This document shows, in pieces, positions 13,029-49,688 of a stretch of DNA of 64,000 bases. Position numbers and translations under genes: made by a program. The DNA is from Candidatus Onthoplasma sp. (GTDB taxonomy: Bacteria > Bacillota > Clostridia > Christensenellales > UBA1242). Numbering within the stretch: position 1 is the stretch's first letter; every line of letters begins with the position of its first letter. Location of the stretch: the NCBI GenBank assembly GCA_965646995.1, contig CBFGBH010000001.1, forward strand, positions 16,372 to 80,371, in the 5' to 3' direction. The notes beneath the pieces were generated by a model. It was not told the origin of the DNA. It worked only from the letters and a program-made list of their open reading frames with translations, and searched no databases.

Positions 13029-13105
<77 letters not shown>

Positions 13106-39971: not shown

Positions 39972-40718
39972 ATGGATGCATTAAAACATATTTTAATCGG
40001 ATTAATACAAGGTTTGACAGAATTTTTGCCAATCTCTAGTAGCGGGCATATCGTATTATTCGGTTCATTCTTTGATATGGACAACCTAATGCTAATAAGT
40101 ATTGTAGCACATGTGGGTACACTATTTGCAGTACTATTCTGCTATCGAAAACGCATATTCGAATTGGTACGAAAACCATTCAATAAAACCAATCTCAATC
40201 TCATCATCGCCACTATACCTACTGTCATCATGGTATTGTTGTTTAATAATTTTTTAGAAGGTAATTTCTCTACGCATACACTCATTTGGGGATTTCTAAT
40301 CTCGGCAGTATTGCTCGTCATTGCAGACTTCAAAAAAGACAGCTTCCGCCCAATGAATAAACGCTCATCTCTCTACATGGGACTAGCACAGGGTCTAGCA
40401 CTCTTACCCGGAATATCACGCAGTGGCTCTACTCTCGTATGCGGTCTCTTGGTCGGCGTCGAGAAAAATGAAGCACTTGATTTCTCCTTTTTAATGAGCA
40501 TACCAGTAATTATCGCCAGTGCAGTGTATGAGTCTATTAAACTATTCTCCACTCCAATCACTATTAATTGGCTTGCTTTGGGTCTAGTACTCATATCTTC
40601 GTTTATATTTGGAATACTATCTATCAAAGTAATGCTAAAGATAGTCAAGAAAAATAAACTCTACTATTTCTCAATTTATTTAATTGTACTAAGTCTGATG
40701 ATTTTATTCTTTGTATAA
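39972..40718 (+). CDS. uppP: undecaprenyl-diphosphate phosphatase
   Basis: 248 aa polytopic. GLTEFLPISSSGH and PGISRSGST are BacA/UppP signatures. Confidence 0.9.
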   Translation: MDALKHILIGLIQGLTEFLPISSSGHIVLFGSFFDMDNLMLISIVAHVGTLFAVLFCYRKRIFELVRKPFNKTNLNLIIATIPTVIMVLLFNNFLEGNFSTHTLIWGFLISAVLLVIADFKKDSFRPMNKRSSLYMGLAQGLALLPGISRSGSTLVCGLLVGVEKNEALDFSFLMSIPVIIASAVYESIKLFSTPITINWLALGLVLISSFIFGILSIKVMLKIVKKNKLYYFSIYLIVLSLMILFFV

Positions 40719-40746
40719 AAAAAGAGATGAATTCATCTCTTTTTTA
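40717..40746. terminator. bidirectional terminator
   Basis: Palindrome AGAGATGAATTCATCTCT flanked by A-run and T-run. Confidence 0.6.
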
Positions 40747-41721
40747 ATCACAACAGCAGGCTGGATGCGGATCATAATATTCAACATGTCTATTTATCTC
40801 TTCATCTAACATAGGTTTTAGAGCCTTATAGAAACTATCATCTTTTCTACTACCTAAAGCAAGTGCTAATATTTCTTTGGCTACGGCTTTGCTATTTGAT
40901 GTATATCGTATATCTTTTCTAATATTCTCAATATATTGTTCTTTGGTAGGTTTATAGAGTTCTTTTAATCTCTTATCGTCATTTTTAAGTGCATTCTTCA
41001 TCTCAATTAGTCTTACTCTATAATCTTCTACTCGAATAATTATATCTAATAGAATATTTGCCATATCTATAGATATTATATTTAAATTATAACTACAATT
41101 AATTGAGCTAAAGTTACCACTTTCTAACTGAATCAAAAATTTGCCAGTTTTAGTATAAATATCATATTTCTTATGTGGACACTGTACCACGATAATCTCT
41201 CCCATTGCCTGAAATAAATTGCCCATACAATACGAATATCCTTTATCAGAAGTATCGACTTTCGATGTATTAGTGTATTTAACCGGAACTATACACTCTC
41301 CGAATCTACCAATAATACCATACTCTCCATCAATACCTACCACCGCCAATCCATTATTAAAATCAGAAGCATAGTCATATATGGGTGGCACTACAACAAT
41401 GGCAGTCTCATCGATAAAGCCGAATTTACCAAAATTCTCTCTAAACTTCGTTCTTCCTTCGTGAGTTTCAAGGATTTTGCCTAGTACTAAGTGTTTATTT
41501 TTATTAAATGGAGTATTAAGCTCACGAGAATACACTTCGTAATTATATAGCTTATGCTCTTGGTCATATTTGTCCCAAGTATCAAGCTTTCTATAACTGC
41601 GAGTTAATTGAGTGAAAAATTCATCCGCCATTCTATCAAATTCATCTTTCTCACTTAGTACAGTGTGAACTGTCACTTCTTTTTTGTCATTTCTTTTAAT
41701 AGTTTTACCAAATAGTCCCAT
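40744..41721 (-). CDS. WG-repeat containing protein
   Basis: 325 aa. Motifs such as NNGLAVVGIDGEYGIIGRFGECIVPVKY resemble KWG/WG repeats. Ends with the unusual C-terminus HPACCCD. Confidence 0.5.
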   Translation of the reverse strand: MGLFGKTIKRNDKKEVTVHTVLSEKDEFDRMADEFFTQLTRSYRKLDTWDKYDQEHKLYNYEVYSRELNTPFNKNKHLVLGKILETHEGRTKFRENFGKFGFIDETAIVVVPPIYDYASDFNNGLAVVGIDGEYGIIGRFGECIVPVKYTNTSKVDTSDKGYSYCMGNLFQAMGEIIVVQCPHKKYDIYTKTGKFLIQLESGNFSSINCSYNLNIISIDMANILLDIIIRVEDYRVRLIEMKNALKNDDKRLKELYKPTKEQYIENIRKDIRYTSNSKAVAKEILALALGSRKDDSFYKALKPMLDEEINRHVEYYDPHPACCCD

Positions 41722-41802
41722 AATTGTCTCCTAATATGTCACATGATACCACAAATTTCACTCTTGTCAACCCCTCCCCCCTATACTTTTTTAATTTTTT
41801 GA

Positions 41803-41826
41803 TAAAAAAATGGCACTCTTGCCATT
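41803..41826 (-). terminator. terminator after the toxin/immunity-like pair
   Basis: Hairpin ATGGCA/TGCCAT followed by T7 on the minus strand. Confidence 0.55.
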
Positions 41827-41830
41827 ATTT

Positions 41831-42172
41831 TTAAGAATCATATTTATACGGAATTTTATTCTTTTTTTCTCCAAGTAAATTCATTATATACCCATCTTCC
41901 ACCTTGCACCACCAACGCGGGTCATTTTTTGGCAGGGCATCTAGAATCATATCATCTGTACAACCATATTCTTCCATTAATTCTATATCTTCTACTTCAA
42001 TGCAAGAATACTTATACCAATCATACTCATCCCCTGTCTCGAAAGCCACATAAAAACAATTATCCCTTATCTCTGCTTCCCATATAACTCCAATCTCGCC
42101 TAATGTAATTTTATCGCTTTTATATCTTTCTCTTAATTTAATTACCTTAACCTTATCTAAATATTTCATCAT
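41831..42172 (-). CDS. small acidic protein, immunity/antitoxin candidate (SH3-like, DUF4926-like N-terminus)
   Basis: 113 aa. Start ATG overlaps the stop of the upstream gene (ATGA). The N-terminal pattern VKVIKL...GEIGVIWEA...FYVAFETGD resembles DUF4926-type small domains. Confidence 0.35.
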   Translation of the reverse strand: MMKYLDKVKVIKLRERYKSDKITLGEIGVIWEAEIRDNCFYVAFETGDEYDWYKYSCIEVEDIELMEEYGCTDDMILDALPKNDPRWWCKVEDGYIMNLLGEKKNKIPYKYDS

Positions 42173-42795
42173 TTACCTCCGATTATTGTATTCAATTTGA
42201 GTTTCCCATTAGGAAATATAGTGTATGACCATGTGTTATATAAATGTCCTGAGTGTTCATTCTTGCCATGAATTGTTATAAATACATTAATTTTTAAACC
42301 ATATTTTGTATGATTTTCTATTTCATAATTACCATTTGCAAAAGATATTTTAACTAAACGCTTTATCATAGCAATAAATTCATCTTTATCTTCATCCCTA
42401 TATCCCCAGGAATAATACCAGTATAATTTACTCAAAAAGAAATATTGTATTTTCCCTTCAATAAAAATAAACTTTATTTCCTCTGGTTTAGGACTATTAA
42501 TCGCCAACTCCTTACAGTGACAATGAGGATGATATAATCCACTGATAAAATTCATAAAACTACTATTTTTGAATAATGAATAATCCATTCTTTCTGGTTT
42601 TTTGTGGGTTTCATTTTTAAAGTAGCAATGATTTACTGTCACACACTTCCAGCAATGTGGGTCAGTCACATCCTCGTCTACTCCCAAAGAATAAGGGAAA
42701 TCTTCTATCGTCCATGGAGAAATCTTATCTACCACTCTAATCCACTCACTGAAACTTGCTCTAATTAAATCTTGATACCCATCCAGTACACCCAT
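42169..42795 (-). CDS. MuF/SPP1-gp7-like zinc-ribbon protein with an uncharacterised C-terminal domain (toxin candidate)
   Basis: 208 aa. DPHCWKC ... YHPHCHC resembles the CxxC...HPxCxC signature of phage MuF-family domains, which often carry C-terminal toxin modules. Confidence 0.4.
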   Translation of the reverse strand: MGVLDGYQDLIRASFSEWIRVVDKISPWTIEDFPYSLGVDEDVTDPHCWKCVTVNHCYFKNETHKKPERMDYSLFKNSSFMNFISGLYHPHCHCKELAINSPKPEEIKFIFIEGKIQYFFLSKLYWYYSWGYRDEDKDEFIAMIKRLVKISFANGNYEIENHTKYGLKINVFITIHGKNEHSGHLYNTWSYTIFPNGKLKLNTIIGGK

Positions 42796-42881
42796 ATTAT
42801 ATCATATCTCCTTTGATTTTTATACTTTTTGAAGATATTGCATGATATTTCTATTTTTTATCTATAGGGTGTCAATGAAAC

Positions 42882-42906
42882 AAAAAAAGAGAGATAGTTC
42901 TCTCTT
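42882..42906 (-). terminator. terminator after the lipoprotein gene
   Basis: Hairpin AGAGAGA/TCTCTCT followed by a T-run on the minus strand. Confidence 0.55.
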
Positions 42907-42920
42907 CTTTTTTCTATTTA

Positions 42921-43826
42921 TTACTCCTGTGTAGGAATTTCACTTACTACATAATAAGTGGTCTCATCTACTGTCTCGGTTTTCACTTCATAACCTTCTG
43001 CTTTCTTATTAGCTAGAGTCTCGTCTGTGAATTTACCACCAGTGACTATAATATTTGCTGTAGCTAGGTCATTACCACTAGATGCACTCAACTCGCCATT
43101 GAATGTACCATTCTTGATATTAAGTACAGTCTTATCTTCCCAGTCAGCGAACTCTTTAGCTCTACTTGCTACACCATACTCGATTTTACCATCAACTACG
43201 CCAGTGAAGCTGTCATCAAATGTAACTGCCACACCATCATCGTATAGTCCGTCTTTATTCATGCCGTACCATAAGTCGAATGCTACCTGACCCTTAGCAG
43301 CGGTTAGATTAGTGTTGCCCTTAAGAGTAGCAGAGCCGAAATTATTACTCAGCACATAGGTACAAACTTCGCCTTCCTCTCCTATAGTAGTAGCGTCTAG
43401 ATTCATATTCTCTAGAGTAAGGTTGGCATAATTCTGGAGCATCATCCTGCACCCTTTCTCGCTCTGCTTAACTGTACCATTTTTAAGAGTCACAGTAGAA
43501 CCTTTTAAGAATTGGAATCCTAATGTCTCAGTACCGGTAGACCCTACCATACTACCATCTAGAGTATAAGTAAAACCGCCAAAATCAATAATTACATTTT
43601 GATTAGCTAGCACCTTCACTCCATTACCAGATAGATTCTGGTGTAATTTGACTATCCCACTATTACCGACAGCAGTCACAGCGGCATCAAGAGTATCGTA
43701 CCAAGTAGTCTTATTGCCTACTTCTACAGATACTTTACCCTGTGGCGTGGTCTCTCCACAAGCTGCAAACATGAAGGCACAGCACAAAACTAGCAATGCA
43801 CTTAAAGTCACTTTTAATGTTTTCAT
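42921..43826 (-). CDS. lipoprotein of unknown function
   Basis: Start moved to the AGGAGG-preceded ATG at 43826. Signal MKTLKVTLSALLVLCCAFMFAAC with lipobox. Gly/Thr/Asn-rich body. Confidence 0.6.
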   Translation of the reverse strand: MKTLKVTLSALLVLCCAFMFAACGETTPQGKVSVEVGNKTTWYDTLDAAVTAVGNSGIVKLHQNLSGNGVKVLANQNVIIDFGGFTYTLDGSMVGSTGTETLGFQFLKGSTVTLKNGTVKQSEKGCRMMLQNYANLTLENMNLDATTIGEEGEVCTYVLSNNFGSATLKGNTNLTAAKGQVAFDLWYGMNKDGLYDDGVAVTFDDSFTGVVDGKIEYGVASRAKEFADWEDKTVLNIKNGTFNGELSASSGNDLATANIIVTGGKFTDETLANKKAEGYEVKTETVDETTYYVVSEIPTQE

Positions 43827-44044
43827 TTTTCCTCCTATAATTTTAGAGTATAATAACATATTTGTTTTTTCTTCCATAATGAAAAGTATTCTATAATCGT
43901 AGCATTTTTTTAAATCAACTAGGAATATTGTCGAAGATTATCGAATGAATTATTTATACCGACTATATATAAATCTACAAAATGAATAATCTCATAGTTA
44001 AATAAACAAATACATAATTTAACTCTGATTACACATCATTATAT

Positions 44045-44077
44045 CAGGTTAAAAGACCTAAGTCAAGTCTTTTGACC
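44045..44077. promoter_or_regulatory. 12-bp imperfect inverted repeat upstream of the HTH gene (operator candidate)
   Basis: AGGTTAAAAGAC, 9 nt, GTCTTTTGACCT (one mismatch). Overlaps a TTGACC -35-like hexamer. Confidence 0.3.
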
Positions 44078-44101
44078 TAAAATGTAGTAAAAATTTATAT
44101 T

Positions 44102-44311
44102 ATGGAATTTATTAAAATAATTAAACAAATCATGTCAAACAACAACCTAAGTCAAGATGGCTTAGCTCGTATTATCGGAGTTAACCAGACCACTGTTAGC
44201 CAATGGCTACTGGGCAGGAAAAAACCAAGCTATGATAACATAATTTCGTTCTATGAAAAGTTTGGAGTGACCCCAAATGAGTTTTTCGGAATTGAGACAT
44301 TTATCGATTAA
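44102..44311 (+). CDS. XRE-family HTH transcriptional regulator
   Basis: 69 aa. LSQDGLARIIGVNQTTVSQWLLGRKKP is a classic HTH. Confidence 0.75.
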   Translation: MEFIKIIKQIMSNNNLSQDGLARIIGVNQTTVSQWLLGRKKPSYDNIISFYEKFGVTPNEFFGIETFID

Positions 44312-44334
44312 TCTCTCACACTATATTTTTAATA

Positions 44335-44363
44335 TTGACATATTCTTGAAAATATGATAATAT
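44335..44363 (+). promoter_or_regulatory. near-consensus sigma-A promoter driving the large ncRNA
   Basis: TTGACA, 17 nt, TAATAT with a TGa extended -10. Predicted TSS about 44370, immediately before the closing helix of the RNA. Confidence 0.6.
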
Positions 44364-44370
44364 ATTTATA

Positions 44371-44945
44371 TCACGAAGGTGCAGTATTCTAGTCAACTAG
44401 TGTGAATGAGGATGCCGAAATAAGCATCGATGGCACAACTATGAAGTTCGTGGTGCTGGCTTTGGTTGCCCAAACTGGGGCTGGTGCTGGGAGTTAAGAT
44501 TTTTGGGTAGCATATAACGGCATATATGCCCACACCCAATTATCGTGGAGACCCAACTGGGTAAAGACGATTTGATTACATATCTTATTTATCTCTTGGG
44601 CTAGAAACCTGCATGTGGCGAAAGCTATATGCAGTGTAGCCTGCTTTGAGTGGATATATTGGGATAGGGCGTCAACTGTCTCTCTTCAAAGTACACGAAG
44701 AGCGATAAGTTGCTCTTGAAATTATCTCCGCAAAATAAAGATAAATTTACACGATGTTGTTAAGGAAAACTTCTAGACTGTTCGTAAGAGATTCCTAAGG
44801 GATTATAGTGTGGTCTCAGTGGCGATTCGGTGCAAGTTCTGCGTGAAGGGAAACCGCTCGGCTGGTAACGGAAGAGTGCAGAATTGGGAAATCCAACCGA
44901 ACCTTATGCCGCAAGGTTTACTTTGGGAATTGCCTTCGTAAATTC
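44371..44945 (+). ncRNA. ole: large structured ncRNA of about 575 nt, best candidate OLE RNA
   Basis: No ORF of 60 aa or more in any frame and visibly higher GC than the flanks. Closing helix ACGAAGG (44373) pairs with CCTTCGT (44933). Many nested hairpins, including GCATATA/TATATGC, CTGCAT...GGC-GAAA-GCU...ATGCAG, GGCTA/TAGCC and AACCTT/AAGGTT. Followed on the same strand by a 4-TM gene of about 21 kDa, as expected for ole-oapA. Confidence 0.55.
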
Positions 44946-44996
44946 TAATTTAATAGGAATAAGACTATTGTTCTAATTCCTTTAATATAATCTAAT

Positions 44997-45563
44997 ATGA
45001 AAGAAAAAACTGAAAAGAATAAAAAACCTAAAACTCAAAAATCATGGGTATGGCCAGTGAAGATACTATTACTAGCCATATTTCTTTCTCTATCCTTTAG
45101 TATCATCAGTGAACTCGCGCTCGAGAATGCGAGCATAATTGTATCTGTCATAGTGATATTGACATTCATAAGCGTAAGTATACTCTTCGATATGCTAGGA
45201 CTCGCTGTAGCATCTAGTAGTCTGGAGAATTTCACTGCTATGGCATCTAGAAAAGTCAAAGGTAGCAAACAAGCTATTGCTCTGAATAAGAATGCAGACA
45301 AAGTCTCATCAATATGCGCTGATGTGATAGGCGATGTATGTGGAATTCTGTCTGGTGCAGCCGGTGCTAGCATACTCACTAAAATTGCACTTGCATCAAA
45401 TGGGGATTTCATTCAAATTCTGATAGCTTCATCTATATCAGCCGTGATTGCTGGACTCACGATATTTGGTAAAGCAAGTCTAAAACGCTATGCTATTAAA
45501 CATTCTAATGAAATCACATTGAAGTTCGCCAAATTTATCAATTTTTTCACTAGAAAAGATTAG
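44997..45563 (+). CDS. oapA: four-TM membrane protein, OLE-associated protein A candidate
   Basis: 188 aa with four predicted TM helices and a DVIGD (DxxxD) motif in TM3. Immediately downstream of the large ncRNA. TATAAT box 5 nt before the ATG and no SD. Confidence 0.45.
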   Translation: MKEKTEKNKKPKTQKSWVWPVKILLLAIFLSLSFSIISELALENASIIVSVIVILTFISVSILFDMLGLAVASSSLENFTAMASRKVKGSKQAIALNKNADKVSSICADVIGDVCGILSGAAGASILTKIALASNGDFIQILIASSISAVIAGLTIFGKASLKRYAIKHSNEITLKFAKFINFFTRKD

Positions 45564-45838
45564 ATGATTTTGTCTAATTCTTTATACCACATTTCGAGTT
45601 CTTGTCCAATACGAACACCTAGACTCAAAGCATATCCGCCCTTGATTCTCTCCTTCTCTTCATAAAATTCACGAAGATGAAATAGGTAAGAGTTAAGGGA
45701 TTTTTTCTGCTCAACATTAAGCATATTATATAAATGCTTTCGCGATCTCTGTATATCTAAATAAAATTCACTCTCTTCCTCTTTGAATTTAGGGAATTTG
45801 TGTAAAAATAATTGAATTATAGTATTTGGTATTTCCAT
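45560..45838 (-). CDS. small helical hypothetical protein
   Basis: 92 aa from the AAGGAG-preceded ATG at 45838. Divergent from the double-HTH gene. Confidence 0.45.
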   Translation of the reverse strand: MEIPNTIIQLFLHKFPKFKEEESEFYLDIQRSRKHLYNMLNVEQKKSLNSYLFHLREFYEEKERIKGGYALSLGVRIGQELEMWYKELDKII

Positions 45839-45939
45839 TTTTAGTCTCCTTGTACTTATTATATTAATCACTTTTCGACCTGTCAAGCAAAATCTAAATA
45901 TTAATCGTTTTTCAGCTTGTTGATTTTTTAGGTTGAAAA

Positions 45940-46386
45940 ATGATGTATATTATTAATATGAAAATATTTATTGATAGATTAAAATATCTCATGTCAGAAA
46001 ACCGCTTTACTAATGAAACTCTATCCAATAAACTTGGAGTATCTATTGGTACGATTAAGAGTTGGAAAGTTTCTCAATCTGTACCTATATTAAATACCGC
46101 TATCAAATTAGCCAACTTATTTGAATGTTCACTTGATTATTTATTTGGTAAAATAGATATTGAAAAATATGATAATTATGTCAATCCTCCACCATTCCAT
46201 ATTCAATTAAGAAGATTGATAGAAGAAAAAAATATAAGTCAATACAATCTGATTACCAACAAAATATGTAGTCCCGCAAATCTAACACGCTGGCTAAAAT
46301 ACCAAACCTCTCCCAATATGTCAAACGTAATTAAACTAGCTGATTATTTTAATCTAAGTCTTGACGAATTTGTTGGTAGAGTTTAA
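45940..46386 (+). CDS. tandem double XRE-type HTH regulator
   Basis: Two HTH units (NETLSNKLGVSIGTIKSWK and ISQYNLITNKICSPANLTRWLK). Likely start is ATG 45958, 6 nt after TG-TATATT. Confidence 0.7.
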   Translation: MMYIINMKIFIDRLKYLMSENRFTNETLSNKLGVSIGTIKSWKVSQSVPILNTAIKLANLFECSLDYLFGKIDIEKYDNYVNPPPFHIQLRRLIEEKNISQYNLITNKICSPANLTRWLKYQTSPNMSNVIKLADYFNLSLDEFVGRV

Positions 46387-46388
46387 AA
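46315..46388 (+). repeat. direct repeat copy A (3' end of the double-HTH gene)
   Basis: 74 nt, 68/74 identical to 47202..47275. Confidence 0.85.
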
Positions 46389-46414
46389 AAAGTAACTTGT
46401 TAGTTACCTTTTTT
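46385..46414. terminator. bidirectional terminator between the HTH gene and toxN
   Basis: Hairpin GTAAC/GTTAC flanked by A7 and T6. Overlaps the toxN stop codon. Confidence 0.5.
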
Positions 46415-46885
46415 ATTAAACAATTTTGATTTTTGTTCTAATAATGTATAGTTACAACATCTCTGTCTAACTTCTTGTCTCAATGTACCTTTATTATAAG
46501 AATTATATAGATTCGTTGCTCTATTCAAGATTTTTATCTCGTTGTCTTTAAAAAATATTGCTTGTTTTATTAAGAGCTGTCTATATTTTAAATTTTTCTC
46601 GTCAAGTATATTAAAATTAATAATACTATCTTTGACTACAGGTATCATATTATTAAAATTAATTACACCAAGTTTACCAGCATCGATCTTCATCATATCT
46701 TCTGAATTCTTCATCGTCAAATGCTTTTGTTTCGGACTAGACAAAGGAGCATAATATTTATGATTTTTCACTTTAAATAATATACCTATGTATGGGCGAG
46801 ACTCTCCCTTATTAAAACAAACTTTATTATCAAATTGCCTAAGATAATTGGTATATTTATCAGTAACATATACTATTTTAATCAT
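46400..46885 (-). CDS. toxN: type III toxin-antitoxin toxin, ToxN/AbiQ family endoribonuclease
   Basis: 161 aa from the AGGAGAG-preceded ATG at 46885. Collinear by eye with ToxN/AbiQ: KIVYVTDKYTNYLRQFDNKV, RPYIGILFKVKNHKYYAPLSSPKQKH, LGVINFNNMIPV, YRQLLIKQAIFFKDNEIKI, CNYTLLEQK. The track start at 46930 (GTG) lies inside the terminator hairpin. Confidence 0.88.
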   Translation of the reverse strand: MIKIVYVTDKYTNYLRQFDNKVCFNKGESRPYIGILFKVKNHKYYAPLSSPKQKHLTMKNSEDMMKIDAGKLGVINFNNMIPVVKDSIINFNILDEKNLKYRQLLIKQAIFFKDNEIKILNRATNLYNSYNKGTLRQEVRQRCCNYTLLEQKSKLFNKKGN

Positions 46886-46903
46886 ATCTCTCCTAATTAA
46901 AAA

Positions 46904-46930
46904 GTGGAAAGGAGCGATGCCCCTTTCCAC
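46904..46930 (-). terminator. intra-operon terminator between the antitoxin repeats and toxN
   Basis: 9-bp stem GTGGAAAGG/CCTTTCCAC followed by TTTTT on the minus strand, directly before the toxN RBS. Confidence 0.6.
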
Positions 46931-46940
46931 TACTTTTTTA

Positions 46941-47050
46941 TCCTTACTTCTAGGCTAAGGTTCTCCTGCTTTTTTCGTCCTTACTTTTATGGGCTAAGGT
47001 TCTCCTGCTTTTTTCGTCCTTACTTTTATGGGCTAAGGTTCTCCTGCTTT
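46941..47050 (-). ncRNA. toxI: type III antitoxin RNA: about 2.9 tandem repeats of 39 nt (ToxI/antiQ-like)
   Basis: Plus-strand units TCCTTACTT(CTAG/TTATGG)GCTAAGGTTCTCCTGCTTTTTTCG at 46941..46977, 46978..47016 and 47017..47050 (truncated). Transcribed sense carries an A6 tract per unit. Same strand as and upstream of toxN. Confidence 0.8.
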
Positions 47051-47103
47051 GGGCTCGAAGCCCTACACGGAATAAAAGGAGGTTATCACTTTTTTCCGTT
47101 ATT

Positions 47104-47132
47104 ATTTTATAGCATTATTATATAAAAGTCAA
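47104..47132 (-). promoter_or_regulatory. promoter of the toxI-toxN operon
   Basis: Minus-strand TTGACT, 17 nt, TAAAAT. Two small leader hairpins (47051..47063 and 47066..47098) follow before the repeats. Confidence 0.45.
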
Positions 47133-47201
47133 TATATTTTTCACAAATTATTAATAACGCTACAAAACATATTATTCCCCAATAGTTCAAAACTTTACTA
47201 A

Positions 47202-47273
47202 AATATGTCAAATGTGATAAAACTAGCTGATTATTTTAATCTAAGTCTTGACGAATTTGTAGGTCGTGTTTAA
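47202..47273 (+). pseudogene. orphan 3' fragment of an HTH gene (direct repeat copy B)
   Basis: Encodes NMSNVIKLADYFNLSLDEFVGRV plus stop, identical in protein to the end of the 45940..46386 product. Preceded by an in-frame TAA. The 6 nucleotide differences are all synonymous. Confidence 0.75.
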
Positions 47274-47286
47274 AACAAAAAGCACT

Positions 47287-47967
47287 CTATAATGAGTGTT
47301 TTTTATCATTCTTTTCTTTGAATAATTCTATTACTTGGTCTAGGCTATCATATTTTCTATATGCCATTTCTTTCACTTCATCGCTAGGCTCTTTAAGGTC
47401 GGGTATCAATATAGGTCTCACTCCTGCATGTAAAGCGGAGCGAATTCCATTATCTGAATCTTCTAGTGCTATCGCCTCGTCCGGTTTCACTCCCAGCACT
47501 TCGCAAGCTATCTGATATATTTGTGGGTCTGGCTTAGGACGCTCAACTTTATCTCCTCCTATTATAAAATCAAAATAATCAGTAGATAGTTTCGCCTGAC
47601 TAAATCGCTCTTCTATCCTATTCATAGCAGAAGAAGATGCTACTGCCAGTTTCACATCCTGTGTTTTTAAAAATTCCAGCAGTTCCATGAGTCCCTTTTT
47701 AATGCCTAGACCAATAGTCTCGACCTGCTCCTTCATGAATATCTTATTTAACCTTCTAAATTCAGCAGGGTCGAAATCATCTCCCATTGCTTCTTTTAGC
47801 ATTATATCTATCTTATCTTGACGATTACCCATACATTTGATAATCAATTCTGGTGGGACATTATAGCCATATACCTCGTTAGTTTTTATCACGCCATCGA
47901 GCCATAATTTCTCGGTATCAAACATAAGTCCATCCATATCGAATATAACTGCTTTTATTTCGTTCAT
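47287..47967 (-). CDS. HAD-superfamily hydrolase (beta-phosphoglucomutase-like subfamily IA)
   Basis: 226 aa. DxD motif VIFDMDGLMFDTE and C-terminal EDSDNG motif. Confidence 0.75.
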   Translation of the reverse strand: MNEIKAVIFDMDGLMFDTEKLWLDGVIKTNEVYGYNVPPELIIKCMGNRQDKIDIMLKEAMGDDFDPAEFRRLNKIFMKEQVETIGLGIKKGLMELLEFLKTQDVKLAVASSSAMNRIEERFSQAKLSTDYFDFIIGGDKVERPKPDPQIYQIACEVLGVKPDEAIALEDSDNGIRSALHAGVRPILIPDLKEPSDEVKEMAYRKYDSLDQVIELFKEKNDKKHSL

Positions 47968-49177
47968 TTACTCTCCTTTACTAATCGTCCATACTCTATT
48001 CGATTTAAACCAATCGGTATCTTTTAATTTTATAGTATTGTTTGAACAATTAATACCTACTTGTTCACTTGCCTTATAAGTCACTATCACAATATTTCCA
48101 TTCATGGAAGTAAATAGGTCTTTCTCCCAATCTACACACAGTGTAGTCACATAGATTTTGTCTGTGTACTTTGATACTCGGTCTATGAATTCTTGTGTCG
48201 GGAATTGATTGACCTTAGTCTTGGTATACTCAGGACTGCCGGCACAGCAACACACGCATACTACTTTGGGTTTGATTACACTGAGTAGTTCATCTGTAGA
48301 CGATGTCTTACTACCATGATGACCTGCTTTATATAGGTCAATTTCTGGCAAAGCATTATTCTCGACTAACATTTGCTCTCCACTATCTTCCAAGTCGCCT
48401 GTGAATAGGTAATGTTTGTCCCCATATGTAAGTAGTATACATACCGAATAGTTATTCTCTGTACTCGCCTTATGAGTAGTATCAGTTAGCTCTCTATCAT
48501 ATTCTGAATAATAATTATATAAAATCTCGAACTTAAGTTCATTCGTCTCATCTAGTATAAATTCACGGCTCGCTCCATTCGTATTATTATAACAATCAAT
48601 AGCCGAGTAATGCACTGCTTCCCCGATCTATCTCTTCATTCAATTCTCTAAGGTAATTATTATACATAGTAGCAGTAGCTTTTTGGTTAGTAGCTGAGCC
48701 AAAATCTATTATAGTCTCGCATTCATATATATCAAATATACTTTTCACTTTGCTAGTCGTAGCAAAGCCTGCATAATGGTCTTGGTGTGCATGTGTAACT
48801 ATGACATATTCGAGCGTATTATCTGTCATATATTTATTGAGATAAGATGACACTGTCGCTATGCTATTTGACTTTGAGCCACAGTCGATTAGTATATCAA
48901 TATCTCCATATTTTATATAAGTACAATCGCCAGTATATTTATTGCCCAGTTCTAAGAAATGTATAGATAATTCGTCACTTGCACCTGTGAGCTGTACGCT
49001 CGAGATATCTTCCGTATCTGAATATGAATAGTAGATCTCTTCTCCTATGGTCAATATCTCGGTAGGTGGTAGGGTCGCATAGGTGTAACCAACTACACCT
49101 CCTGCAAAACCTATAATTAAACCTATTATGCAGATAATGAACGATACGAGCGGATTTGATTTTTTTCTTTTAGACAT
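47968..49177 (-). pseudogene. membrane-anchored MBL-fold (ComEC C-terminal-like) hydrolase, split by a frameshift
   Basis: N-terminal half (ORF 48596..49231, real start ATG 49177) has a TM anchor and HAHQDH. C-terminal half (47968..48615) has FTGDLE and AGHHGS. The halves overlap in different frames, and removing one G from the G4 run at 48621..48624 restores a single ORF. Confidence 0.65.
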
Positions 49178-49688
49178 TTTCTCCTCCTTGTGATTCATTA
49201 GGTAGCATTTCTTCACTCTCGCTCGGCTCAACGAATGTGATTAATCGTATCTTCTGTACCTTAAATATGCTACCATATTTGAGACAATTCACTTTATATA
49301 CGATATAGAATGTACCTATCTCGTCTGACGAAAACTCGCCATTCGCACCACGATTAAGGTTGGTATCAATCTCCACTTTCGCACTCATATCACGACCAAA
49401 TGAGACTACCGCCACTCCTTCGTTTAAATAGGATTCGCCAAGCGTCAAAGTTATCTCGTCACGACCGATTATCTCAAACTTATCATTTCGTGATAAATAC
49501 CAGCACAACCCTACACCTATCAATGCTCCTAAAAGTACCAAAACTAATAATGCTATCAATACATTTTTATTAGTGTGTTTTAATGTCTTTTCTACTTGCT
49601 TGCCGGTCTTTTTAGTTGATTTACTATCGAATCTGATATTTAGACCTGCTCTAGCACTCGTCTTGCTCGCTGATTTTCTAGTCGCCAT
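49170..49688 (-). CDS. membrane-anchored protein with an Ig-like (DUF5011-like) ectodomain
   Basis: 172 aa. Basic N-terminus, one TM helix, then a pattern GESYLNEGVAVVSFGRD...IGTFYIVYKV reminiscent of DUF5011. Confidence 0.4.
   Translation of the reverse strand: MATRKSASKTSARAGLNIRFDSKSTKKTGKQVEKTLKHTNKNVLIALLVLVLLGALIGVGLCWYLSRNDKFEIIGRDEITLTLGESYLNEGVAVVSFGRDMSAKVEIDTNLNRGANGEFSSDEIGTFYIVYKVNCLKYGSIFKVQKIRLITFVEPSESEEMLPNESQGGENV

Follow-up and report, generated by a model that had tools for sequence, protein, structure and literature searches.

An OLE RNA gene and its oapA neighbour in a Candidatus Onthoplasma contig

OLE (ornate, large, extremophilic) RNA, reportedly introduced by Puerta-Fernandez et al. 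in 2006, ranks among the most enigmatic large bacterial RNAs and has been proposed to span the membrane as a dimer; its associated protein OapA is said to be the subject of Harris et al. 2018. Here, we describe a locus of this kind in a stretch of 64,000 nucleotides (nt) from Candidatus Onthoplasma sp. (the whole stretch is referred to as the window). It comprises a match to OLE RNA at 44360..44952 on the forward (+) strand and, immediately after it, a gene for a protein of 188 amino acids (aa) at 44997..45563 (+).

What is known about such systems? An OLE-containing membrane ribonucleoprotein (RNP) and an RNA homodimer are known from Halalkalibacterium halodurans, Clostridium acetobutylicum and C. 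botulinum. OLE dimers have been visualized by cryo-electron microscopy (cryo-EM; Kretsch et al. 2025, PMC12286853), and recent cryo-EM work suggests that the RNA's P3 stems may cross the membrane. OapA reportedly binds OLE RNA and brings it to the membrane (Block et al. 2011). H. halodurans needs the OLE RNP for growth in the cold, in ethanol, at more than 2 mM Mg2+ and on poor carbon sources, and its complex has the further partners OapB/YbzG and OapC/YbxF, both of which some gut clades lack (PMC11332333). A survey of OLE in Bacillota retrieved 2,822 hits in GTDB (PMC11332333). Two shorter forms have been described: variant 1, the TANB77-type, with shortened P7–P9, and variant 2, the RF39-type, without P7 and P8. 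As for the protein, Fernando and Breaker 2024 (PMC11332333) found weak CNNM/DUF21 homology in OapA and ranked 7M1U first among its structural matches; it has four transmembrane (TM) helices as compared to three in CorB, and a DxxxD motif that is missing from CNNM domains (PMC11332333).

We conclude with a probability of about 0.97 that the interval in the window consists of ole, encoding a full-length OLE RNA, followed by oapA, the gene of its obligate membrane-protein partner. An earlier note on this DNA had called the interval OLE/oapA-like or else a new large RNA; both a covariance-model match and a protein comparison with OapA, the two checks that it had named, speak for the first of these readings. 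An OLE/oapA locus had been recognised correctly from the letters alone.

Identity of the RNA and its protein partner

To assign the RNA to a family, we ran cmscan on the entire 64 kb with all 4227 Rfam 15 families, applying their gathering thresholds. RF01071 (OLE RNA) was matched at 44360..44952 (+) with 361.4 bits (gathering score 50; E 1.4e-102), in an alignment that spans model positions 1-616 of 616 and is not truncated, and no match to ROOL, GOLLD, HEARO or raiA was returned in the window. The likeness to OLE RNA thus extends over the full covariance model and includes conserved blocks such as GCAGUAUUCUAGUCA, GGAGUUAAG, GUGUAGCCUG and GGGAAAUCC, the helices, the position immediately upstream of oapA and an anaerobic Bacillota host. 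With 567 nt, the structured core (44373..44939, +) is close in size to the 577-nt OLE RNA of C. acetobutylicum. In the RF01071 alignment, three hairpins at model positions ~197-385 are matched at essentially consensus length, and neither the loss nor the shortening of P7–P9 that marks variants 1 and 2 is seen in the window copy; the near-consensus length of the hairpins in the P7–P9 region therefore identifies it as the full-length type. The region also stands out by composition, as had been noted before, its GC content being 0.38-0.45 across 44250..44850 as opposed to 0.23-0.32 in the flanks and 0.34 in the whole window. The 571-nt stretch 44371..44941 has a minimum free energy (MFE) of -185.3 kcal/mol, corresponding to z = -3.88 against 100 dinucleotide shuffles.

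Is this structure maintained among relatives? Searching for the 188-aa protein in one genome per GTDB species led to seven loci, all from metagenome-assembled genomes (MAGs) of uncultured Christensenellaceae, Clostridiales or Clostridia, with OapA identities of 66-91%; four look-ups of more distant homologues contributed eight further loci. YchF of the nearest genomes is 85-97% identical to that of the window. These genomes are Clostridia gut MAGs, in keeping with the usual OLE hosts (Bacillota, typically anaerobes or extremophiles). OLE lies directly upstream of the oapA homologue in all 14 loci scanned. Twelve hold complete copies, scoring 330-364 bits, while those of L005 and L006 are cut at the 5′ end by the end of the contig.

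Projecting the Rfam structure, plus a terminal helix described below, onto an alignment of 12 sequences, we find the covariation by which the earlier note had proposed to judge the helices. Pairs changed on both sides number 57, compared to 16-28 once the 3′ partners have been shifted by 1-3 columns. Standard pairs are formed in 88.1% of cells, versus 39-44% after the shift, a percentage that is favoured by projection from the window copy, which affects the compensatory counts less. Not one of 500 shuffles reached any of the observed pairing measures. The consensus secondary structure of OLE is maintained by compensatory changes among the relatives. Length also varies naturally in the long P9-type stem: the OLE copy of L007 (5401..5975) is without ~22 nt at the tip of this stem (alignment columns ~334-355) and still scores 330 bits.

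The RNA is closed by a terminal helix, whose 5′ strand (44373..44380, +) pairs with the 3′ strand (44932..44939, +) in the MFE fold. It contains the closing helix predicted earlier, ACGAAGG (44373..44379) being complementary to CCTTCGT (44933..44939). Across the 12 sequences, this helix is 95.8% paired; its core GAAGG/CCUUC is invariant, and two flanking pairs have changed on both sides, the one from C-G to U-A in a single sequence, the other with C-G/U-G/U-A. The Rfam structure line leaves these positions unpaired, and the Rfam consensus reads GUGG...CCAC where the clade has GAAGG...CCUUC, meaning that the pairing potential persists although the sequence differs. Support for the terminal helix is modest but consistent, and we consider it real. 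It is probably the published P1, which the text of the OLE model assigns to domain 2 along with P2 and P10-P15. Of the inner helices listed in the earlier note, five belong to the Rfam consensus, namely GATGC/GCATC, TTTGG/CCAAA, GCATATA/TATATGC, CTGCAT/ATGCAG with its GAAA loop, and CTCTTC/GAAGAG. The other five (ATCGT/ACGAT, CCC/GGG, GGCTA/TAGCC, AAGAGC/GCTCTT and AACCTT/AAGGTT) are present as words but absent from the consensus structure; moreover, GGCTA varies among the relatives while TAGCC is invariant, which argues against their pairing.

Judged by homology, TM helices and motif content, the 188-aa product of the downstream gene is OapA. Over 179 aa, 37% of its residues are identical to those of C. 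acetobutylicum OapA and 61% are positives (E 2e-30). The C. acetobutylicum sequence was taken from Kretsch et al. 2025 (PMC12286853, Supplementary Table 4), and the comparison aligns CNDVIGDISG with CADVIGDVCG. The DxxxD motif, D109-V-I-G-D113, is encoded at 45321..45335; neither aspartate varies in an alignment of 46 homologues, and in a set of 120 both are conserved to at least 98%. Hydropathy delineates four segments (~21-40, 46-72, 106-133 and 137-158), the third of which carries the motif, and an AlphaFold2 model built from the homologue alignment (pLDDT 79.8, pTM 0.69) has long helices at 18-42, 47-73, 100-133 and 138-168. Both the four TM helices and the DxxxD motif read from the sequence in the earlier note are thereby borne out.

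How does this protein relate to better-known families? Its match to the Pfam CNNM family PF01595 (16.7 bits) falls below the 28.4-bit cut-off, and no NCBIfam model recognises it. A PDB sequence search returned the archaeal CNNM protein MtCorB (7m1t/7m1u) alone, with E 0.004, and no solved OapA structure. When the AlphaFold2 model was compared to the PDB with Foldseek, the top matches were 7m1t, 7m1u and the CorC TM domain 7cfg, at a query-normalised TM-score of ~0.5. All this resembles OapA as described, a protein of ~190 aa with four TM helices (DxxxD in the third) and basic cytoplasmic segments, whose distantly CNNM-like fold is closest in structure to MtCorB 7M1U and whose gene follows ole directly. 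What sets the protein apart from known OapA is its limited (37%) identity to the C. acetobutylicum protein and, in most of the clade, an oapA gene without a Shine-Dalgarno sequence. Its TM fold is distantly related to that of the CNNM Mg2+ transporters MpfA, CorB and CorC (PF01595). However, it scores below the threshold of that family, has no CBS or CorC/HlyC domains, comprises four TM helices rather than three and carries the DxxxD motif, which CNNM domains lack (PMC11332333); it is not a strict member of the CNNM family.

Could the interval be something else altogether? Before the Rfam search, size, GC enrichment and predicted helices were all that could be cited for a large structured RNA of a class not described before and partnered by a membrane protein, the alternative offered in the earlier note. 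The full-length RF01071 match at 361 bits rules this out; the partner protein is homologous to a named OapA, all relatives match the same known family, and we regard the chance of a new class as negligible. A small protein-coding gene hidden in the region might be suspected from an open reading frame (ORF) of 43 aa at 44810..44941 (+) and one of 48 aa at 44393..44539 (-). These are the largest on either strand of 44312..44996, a stretch that had been described as free of ORFs and that shows no conserved reading frame: among the 12 relatives, the longest open stretches lie in different frames and at different positions. In addition, the 249 variable ungapped columns split 78/83/88 by position modulo 3, revealing no codon periodicity, and substitutions preserve base pairs. 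With neither frame conservation nor 3-nt periodicity, a hidden coding frame is excluded, and we accord it next to no credence. Two observations set limits to the fit with Rfam OLE. First, 18 of the 148 Rfam consensus pairs are non-canonical in the window copy, 130 being canonical. Second, 21 model positions (~479-499), which separate the P12-type helix from the P13-type hairpin, are represented by 2 nt in the window and in all clade members, making the clade slightly more compact than the Rfam consensus. Along with GAAGG/CCUUC in place of GUGG/CCAC in the terminal helix, this replacement is where the window copy departs from Rfam OLE. Both observations are limits only, and we found no evidence that opposes the OLE/oapA identification. 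The locus offers a routine full-length example of a known family, and its local peculiarities do not amount to a variant new in kind.

Promoter, spacer and chromosomal frame

Upstream of the RNA, we predict a sigma-70-type promoter with an extended -10 element (44335..44363, +). It consists of TTGACA (44335..44340), a 17-nt spacer including TG (44355..44356), and TAATAT (44358..44363), scoring 10/12 with TG in the scan. The motif had been pointed out before, in the form TTGACA-17-TGaTAATAT, and TTGACA-17-TGnTAATAT is kept in register in nine of ten distinct loci. In eight of the nine loci with the promoter, the -10 element lies 10-11 nt from the conserved GAAGG, and the DNA further upstream is unrelated among loci. 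This is good comparative evidence for a dedicated ole promoter, from which transcription is predicted to start near 44370. In H. halodurans, by contrast, OLE resides in a long polycistronic operon together with isoprenoid and DNA-repair genes.

The spacer between RNA and protein gene is short. The OLE match stops at 44952, and oapA begins at 44997 in the same orientation; in most loci, 33-59 nt separate the two, usually with a small non-homologous hairpin followed by a U-run (at the same place in L001, L004, L007, L008 and L010). The counterpart in the window is an AU-rich hairpin followed by UUUAAUAUAAU (44955..44981, +). The earlier note was right that a hairpin exists here, but it is weak (spacer fold -7.8 kcal/mol) and was not called by the terminator scan; it may act as a leaky terminator or processing site. 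A different arrangement is found in L012/L013 (2550..3001), where OLE is followed by two strong intrinsic terminators and then, before oapA, by ~450 nt of very AT-rich DNA that contains a TTGACA-17-TAGAAT site and an AAGGA Shine-Dalgarno sequence. There, ole and oapA seem to be transcribed as separate units. The terminators and the promoter-like site imply that the two genes can be uncoupled in at least one lineage.

Uncoupling had been suggested for the window as well, on account of the spacer hairpin and of a TATAAT-N5-ATG promoter in front of oapA. While the spacer hairpins and the L012/L013 terminators lend the idea indirect support, its promoter part fails. TATAAT is present (44986..44991) but not conserved: relatives have TTTTATATATG-type sequences with no -10 element at a workable distance, and we discarded a leaderless oapA promoter. 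The TATAAT is here treated as a chance match in AT-rich DNA. Equally, no Shine-Dalgarno sequence is recognisable before oapA in the window (44975..44999) or in most relatives, including L001-L008 with their TTTTATATATG-type context. AGGAG-like Shine-Dalgarno sequences are present at 20 of the 33 long ORFs in the window.

On a larger scale, ole and oapA occupy a fixed slot. In the relatives, the conserved chromosomal frame reads tyrS, ychF, uppP/bacA, ole, oapA, a metallo-beta-lactamase (MBL)-fold hydrolase gene and gltX, and in L010, L013, L014 and L015 uppP immediately precedes ole and has the same orientation. A conserved uppP/bacA neighbour upstream distinguishes this clade from known OLE loci, and in the literature searched, no paper deals with OLE RNA and undecaprenyl together. 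The window has uppP/bacA, encoding undecaprenyl-diphosphate phosphatase (PF02673), at 39972..40718 (+), and insertions on either side of ole-oapA, at 40744..44311 and 45560..47967. Most genes of both flanking blocks are absent or weakly matched in related loci. Given that ole-oapA occupies the same slot in relatives without the block genes, we take it to be resident and the defence and regulator genes to be local insertions.

Two further explanations accept the sequence matches and read the locus differently. The region could serve chiefly as a cis-acting 5′ leader of oapA, in the manner of a riboswitch or attenuator, instead of giving rise to a free-standing RNA. Both genes are on the same strand with one strong conserved promoter upstream of them, only a weak hairpin intervenes, and most loci have neither a Shine-Dalgarno sequence nor a conserved promoter directly before oapA. 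Yet in the literature OLE RNA acts in trans and is an abundant part of an RNP located at the membrane, and OLE is fully conserved in L012/L013 despite the two terminators, the ~450 nt and the promoter-like site and Shine-Dalgarno sequence that oapA has of its own. A co-transcript would, besides, be compatible with OLE function, as H. halodurans transcribes OLE inside a polycistronic RNA. We deem a mere leader very unlikely. Still less probable to our minds is that ole-oapA travels as cargo of a mobile element or prophage. What invites the thought is the neighbourhood, with XRE-type helix-turn-helix (HTH) genes on both sides (44102..44311 and 45940..46386) and a ToxN/AbiQ gene (46400..46930) with a 39-nt repeat array. 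Synteny rules it out: L003, L008, L010 and L014 keep ole-oapA between uppP/ychF and the MBL hydrolase/gltX without those genes; the XRE/ToxN/HAD block and 40744..43877 have no counterpart, or a weak one, in most loci; and the immediate flanks revealed neither an integrase nor a transposase.

Neighbouring genes

The block upstream of ole (40744..44311) encodes a WG-repeat protein, two unknown proteins, a 318-aa putative lipoprotein and, at 44102..44311, the 69-aa XRE-type HTH protein. An HTH gene, of 68 aa, is also located between bacA and OLE in L012. The block downstream of oapA (45560..47967) encodes a 108-aa unknown protein, a 148-aa double-HTH protein, ToxN/AbiQ and a HAD hydrolase.

Within the downstream block, 46400..47131 (-) holds a complete type III toxin-antitoxin/abortive-infection module. 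Its toxN/abiQ gene (46400..46930; PF13958 E 6e-44, PADLOC AbiQ E 1.7e-40) likely has its true ATG at 46885, after an AGGAG. The gene is preceded by a tandem repeat of 39 nt x 3.1 (46933..47050), typical of ToxI/antiQ antitoxin RNA. A GC-rich hairpin with a T-run (~46898..46930) separates the repeats from the toxin gene, and a promoter-like site, TTGACT...TATAAT, lies upstream. Further on, the MBL-fold hydrolase (-) is split into overlapping ORFs at 47968..48615 and 48596..49231; in L003, L005, L007 and L008, it is a single ORF of ~400-428 aa, and a frameshift, pseudogene or assembly error is the probable cause. Elsewhere in the window, a tRNA gene at 13029..13102 (+; 62.7 bits) is the sole Rfam match besides OLE.

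Implications for OLE biology

What might this locus do in the cell? As far as the sequence can tell, transcription would start near 44370 from the extended -10 promoter, the RNA would close on itself through 44373..44380 and 44932..44939, and some transcripts would read through the weak spacer hairpin into oapA, which has no Shine-Dalgarno sequence. By analogy with H. halodurans and clostridial OLE, the RNA may then dimerise, be bound cooperatively by OapA and be tethered at or in the membrane. OapA itself would, on the same footing, be a CNNM-like putative divalent-cation transporter with a DxxxD motif, related to MpfA, and the resulting RNP could make cold, short-chain alcohols, excess Mg2+ and poor carbon sources easier for the cell to withstand.

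A more specific proposal is that, in this clade, ole-oapA forms a compact self-promoted module fixed directly downstream of uppP, with an oapA gene devoid of a Shine-Dalgarno sequence, and that this layout reflects either a tie to the cell envelope or an unusual control of OapA expression. We hold this to be doubtful. If true, there could be a functional tie of the OLE RNP to lipid-carrier or cell-envelope homeostasis. OapA synthesis, for its part, could be set by an unusual mode of initiation or by read-through past the OLE 3′ hairpin, and in that case protein and RNA would be kept in a fixed ratio.

The window copy adds no new kind of element; it is a further full-length representative, and gut Clostridia like its host have been surveyed before (PMC11332333). 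Its value is comparative: the conserved dedicated promoter defines a probable 5′ end of the RNA, covariation is added for a terminal helix that the Rfam structure line omits, the clade presents a conserved uppP-ole-oapA arrangement, and oapA in the window and most relatives is preceded by no Shine-Dalgarno sequence.

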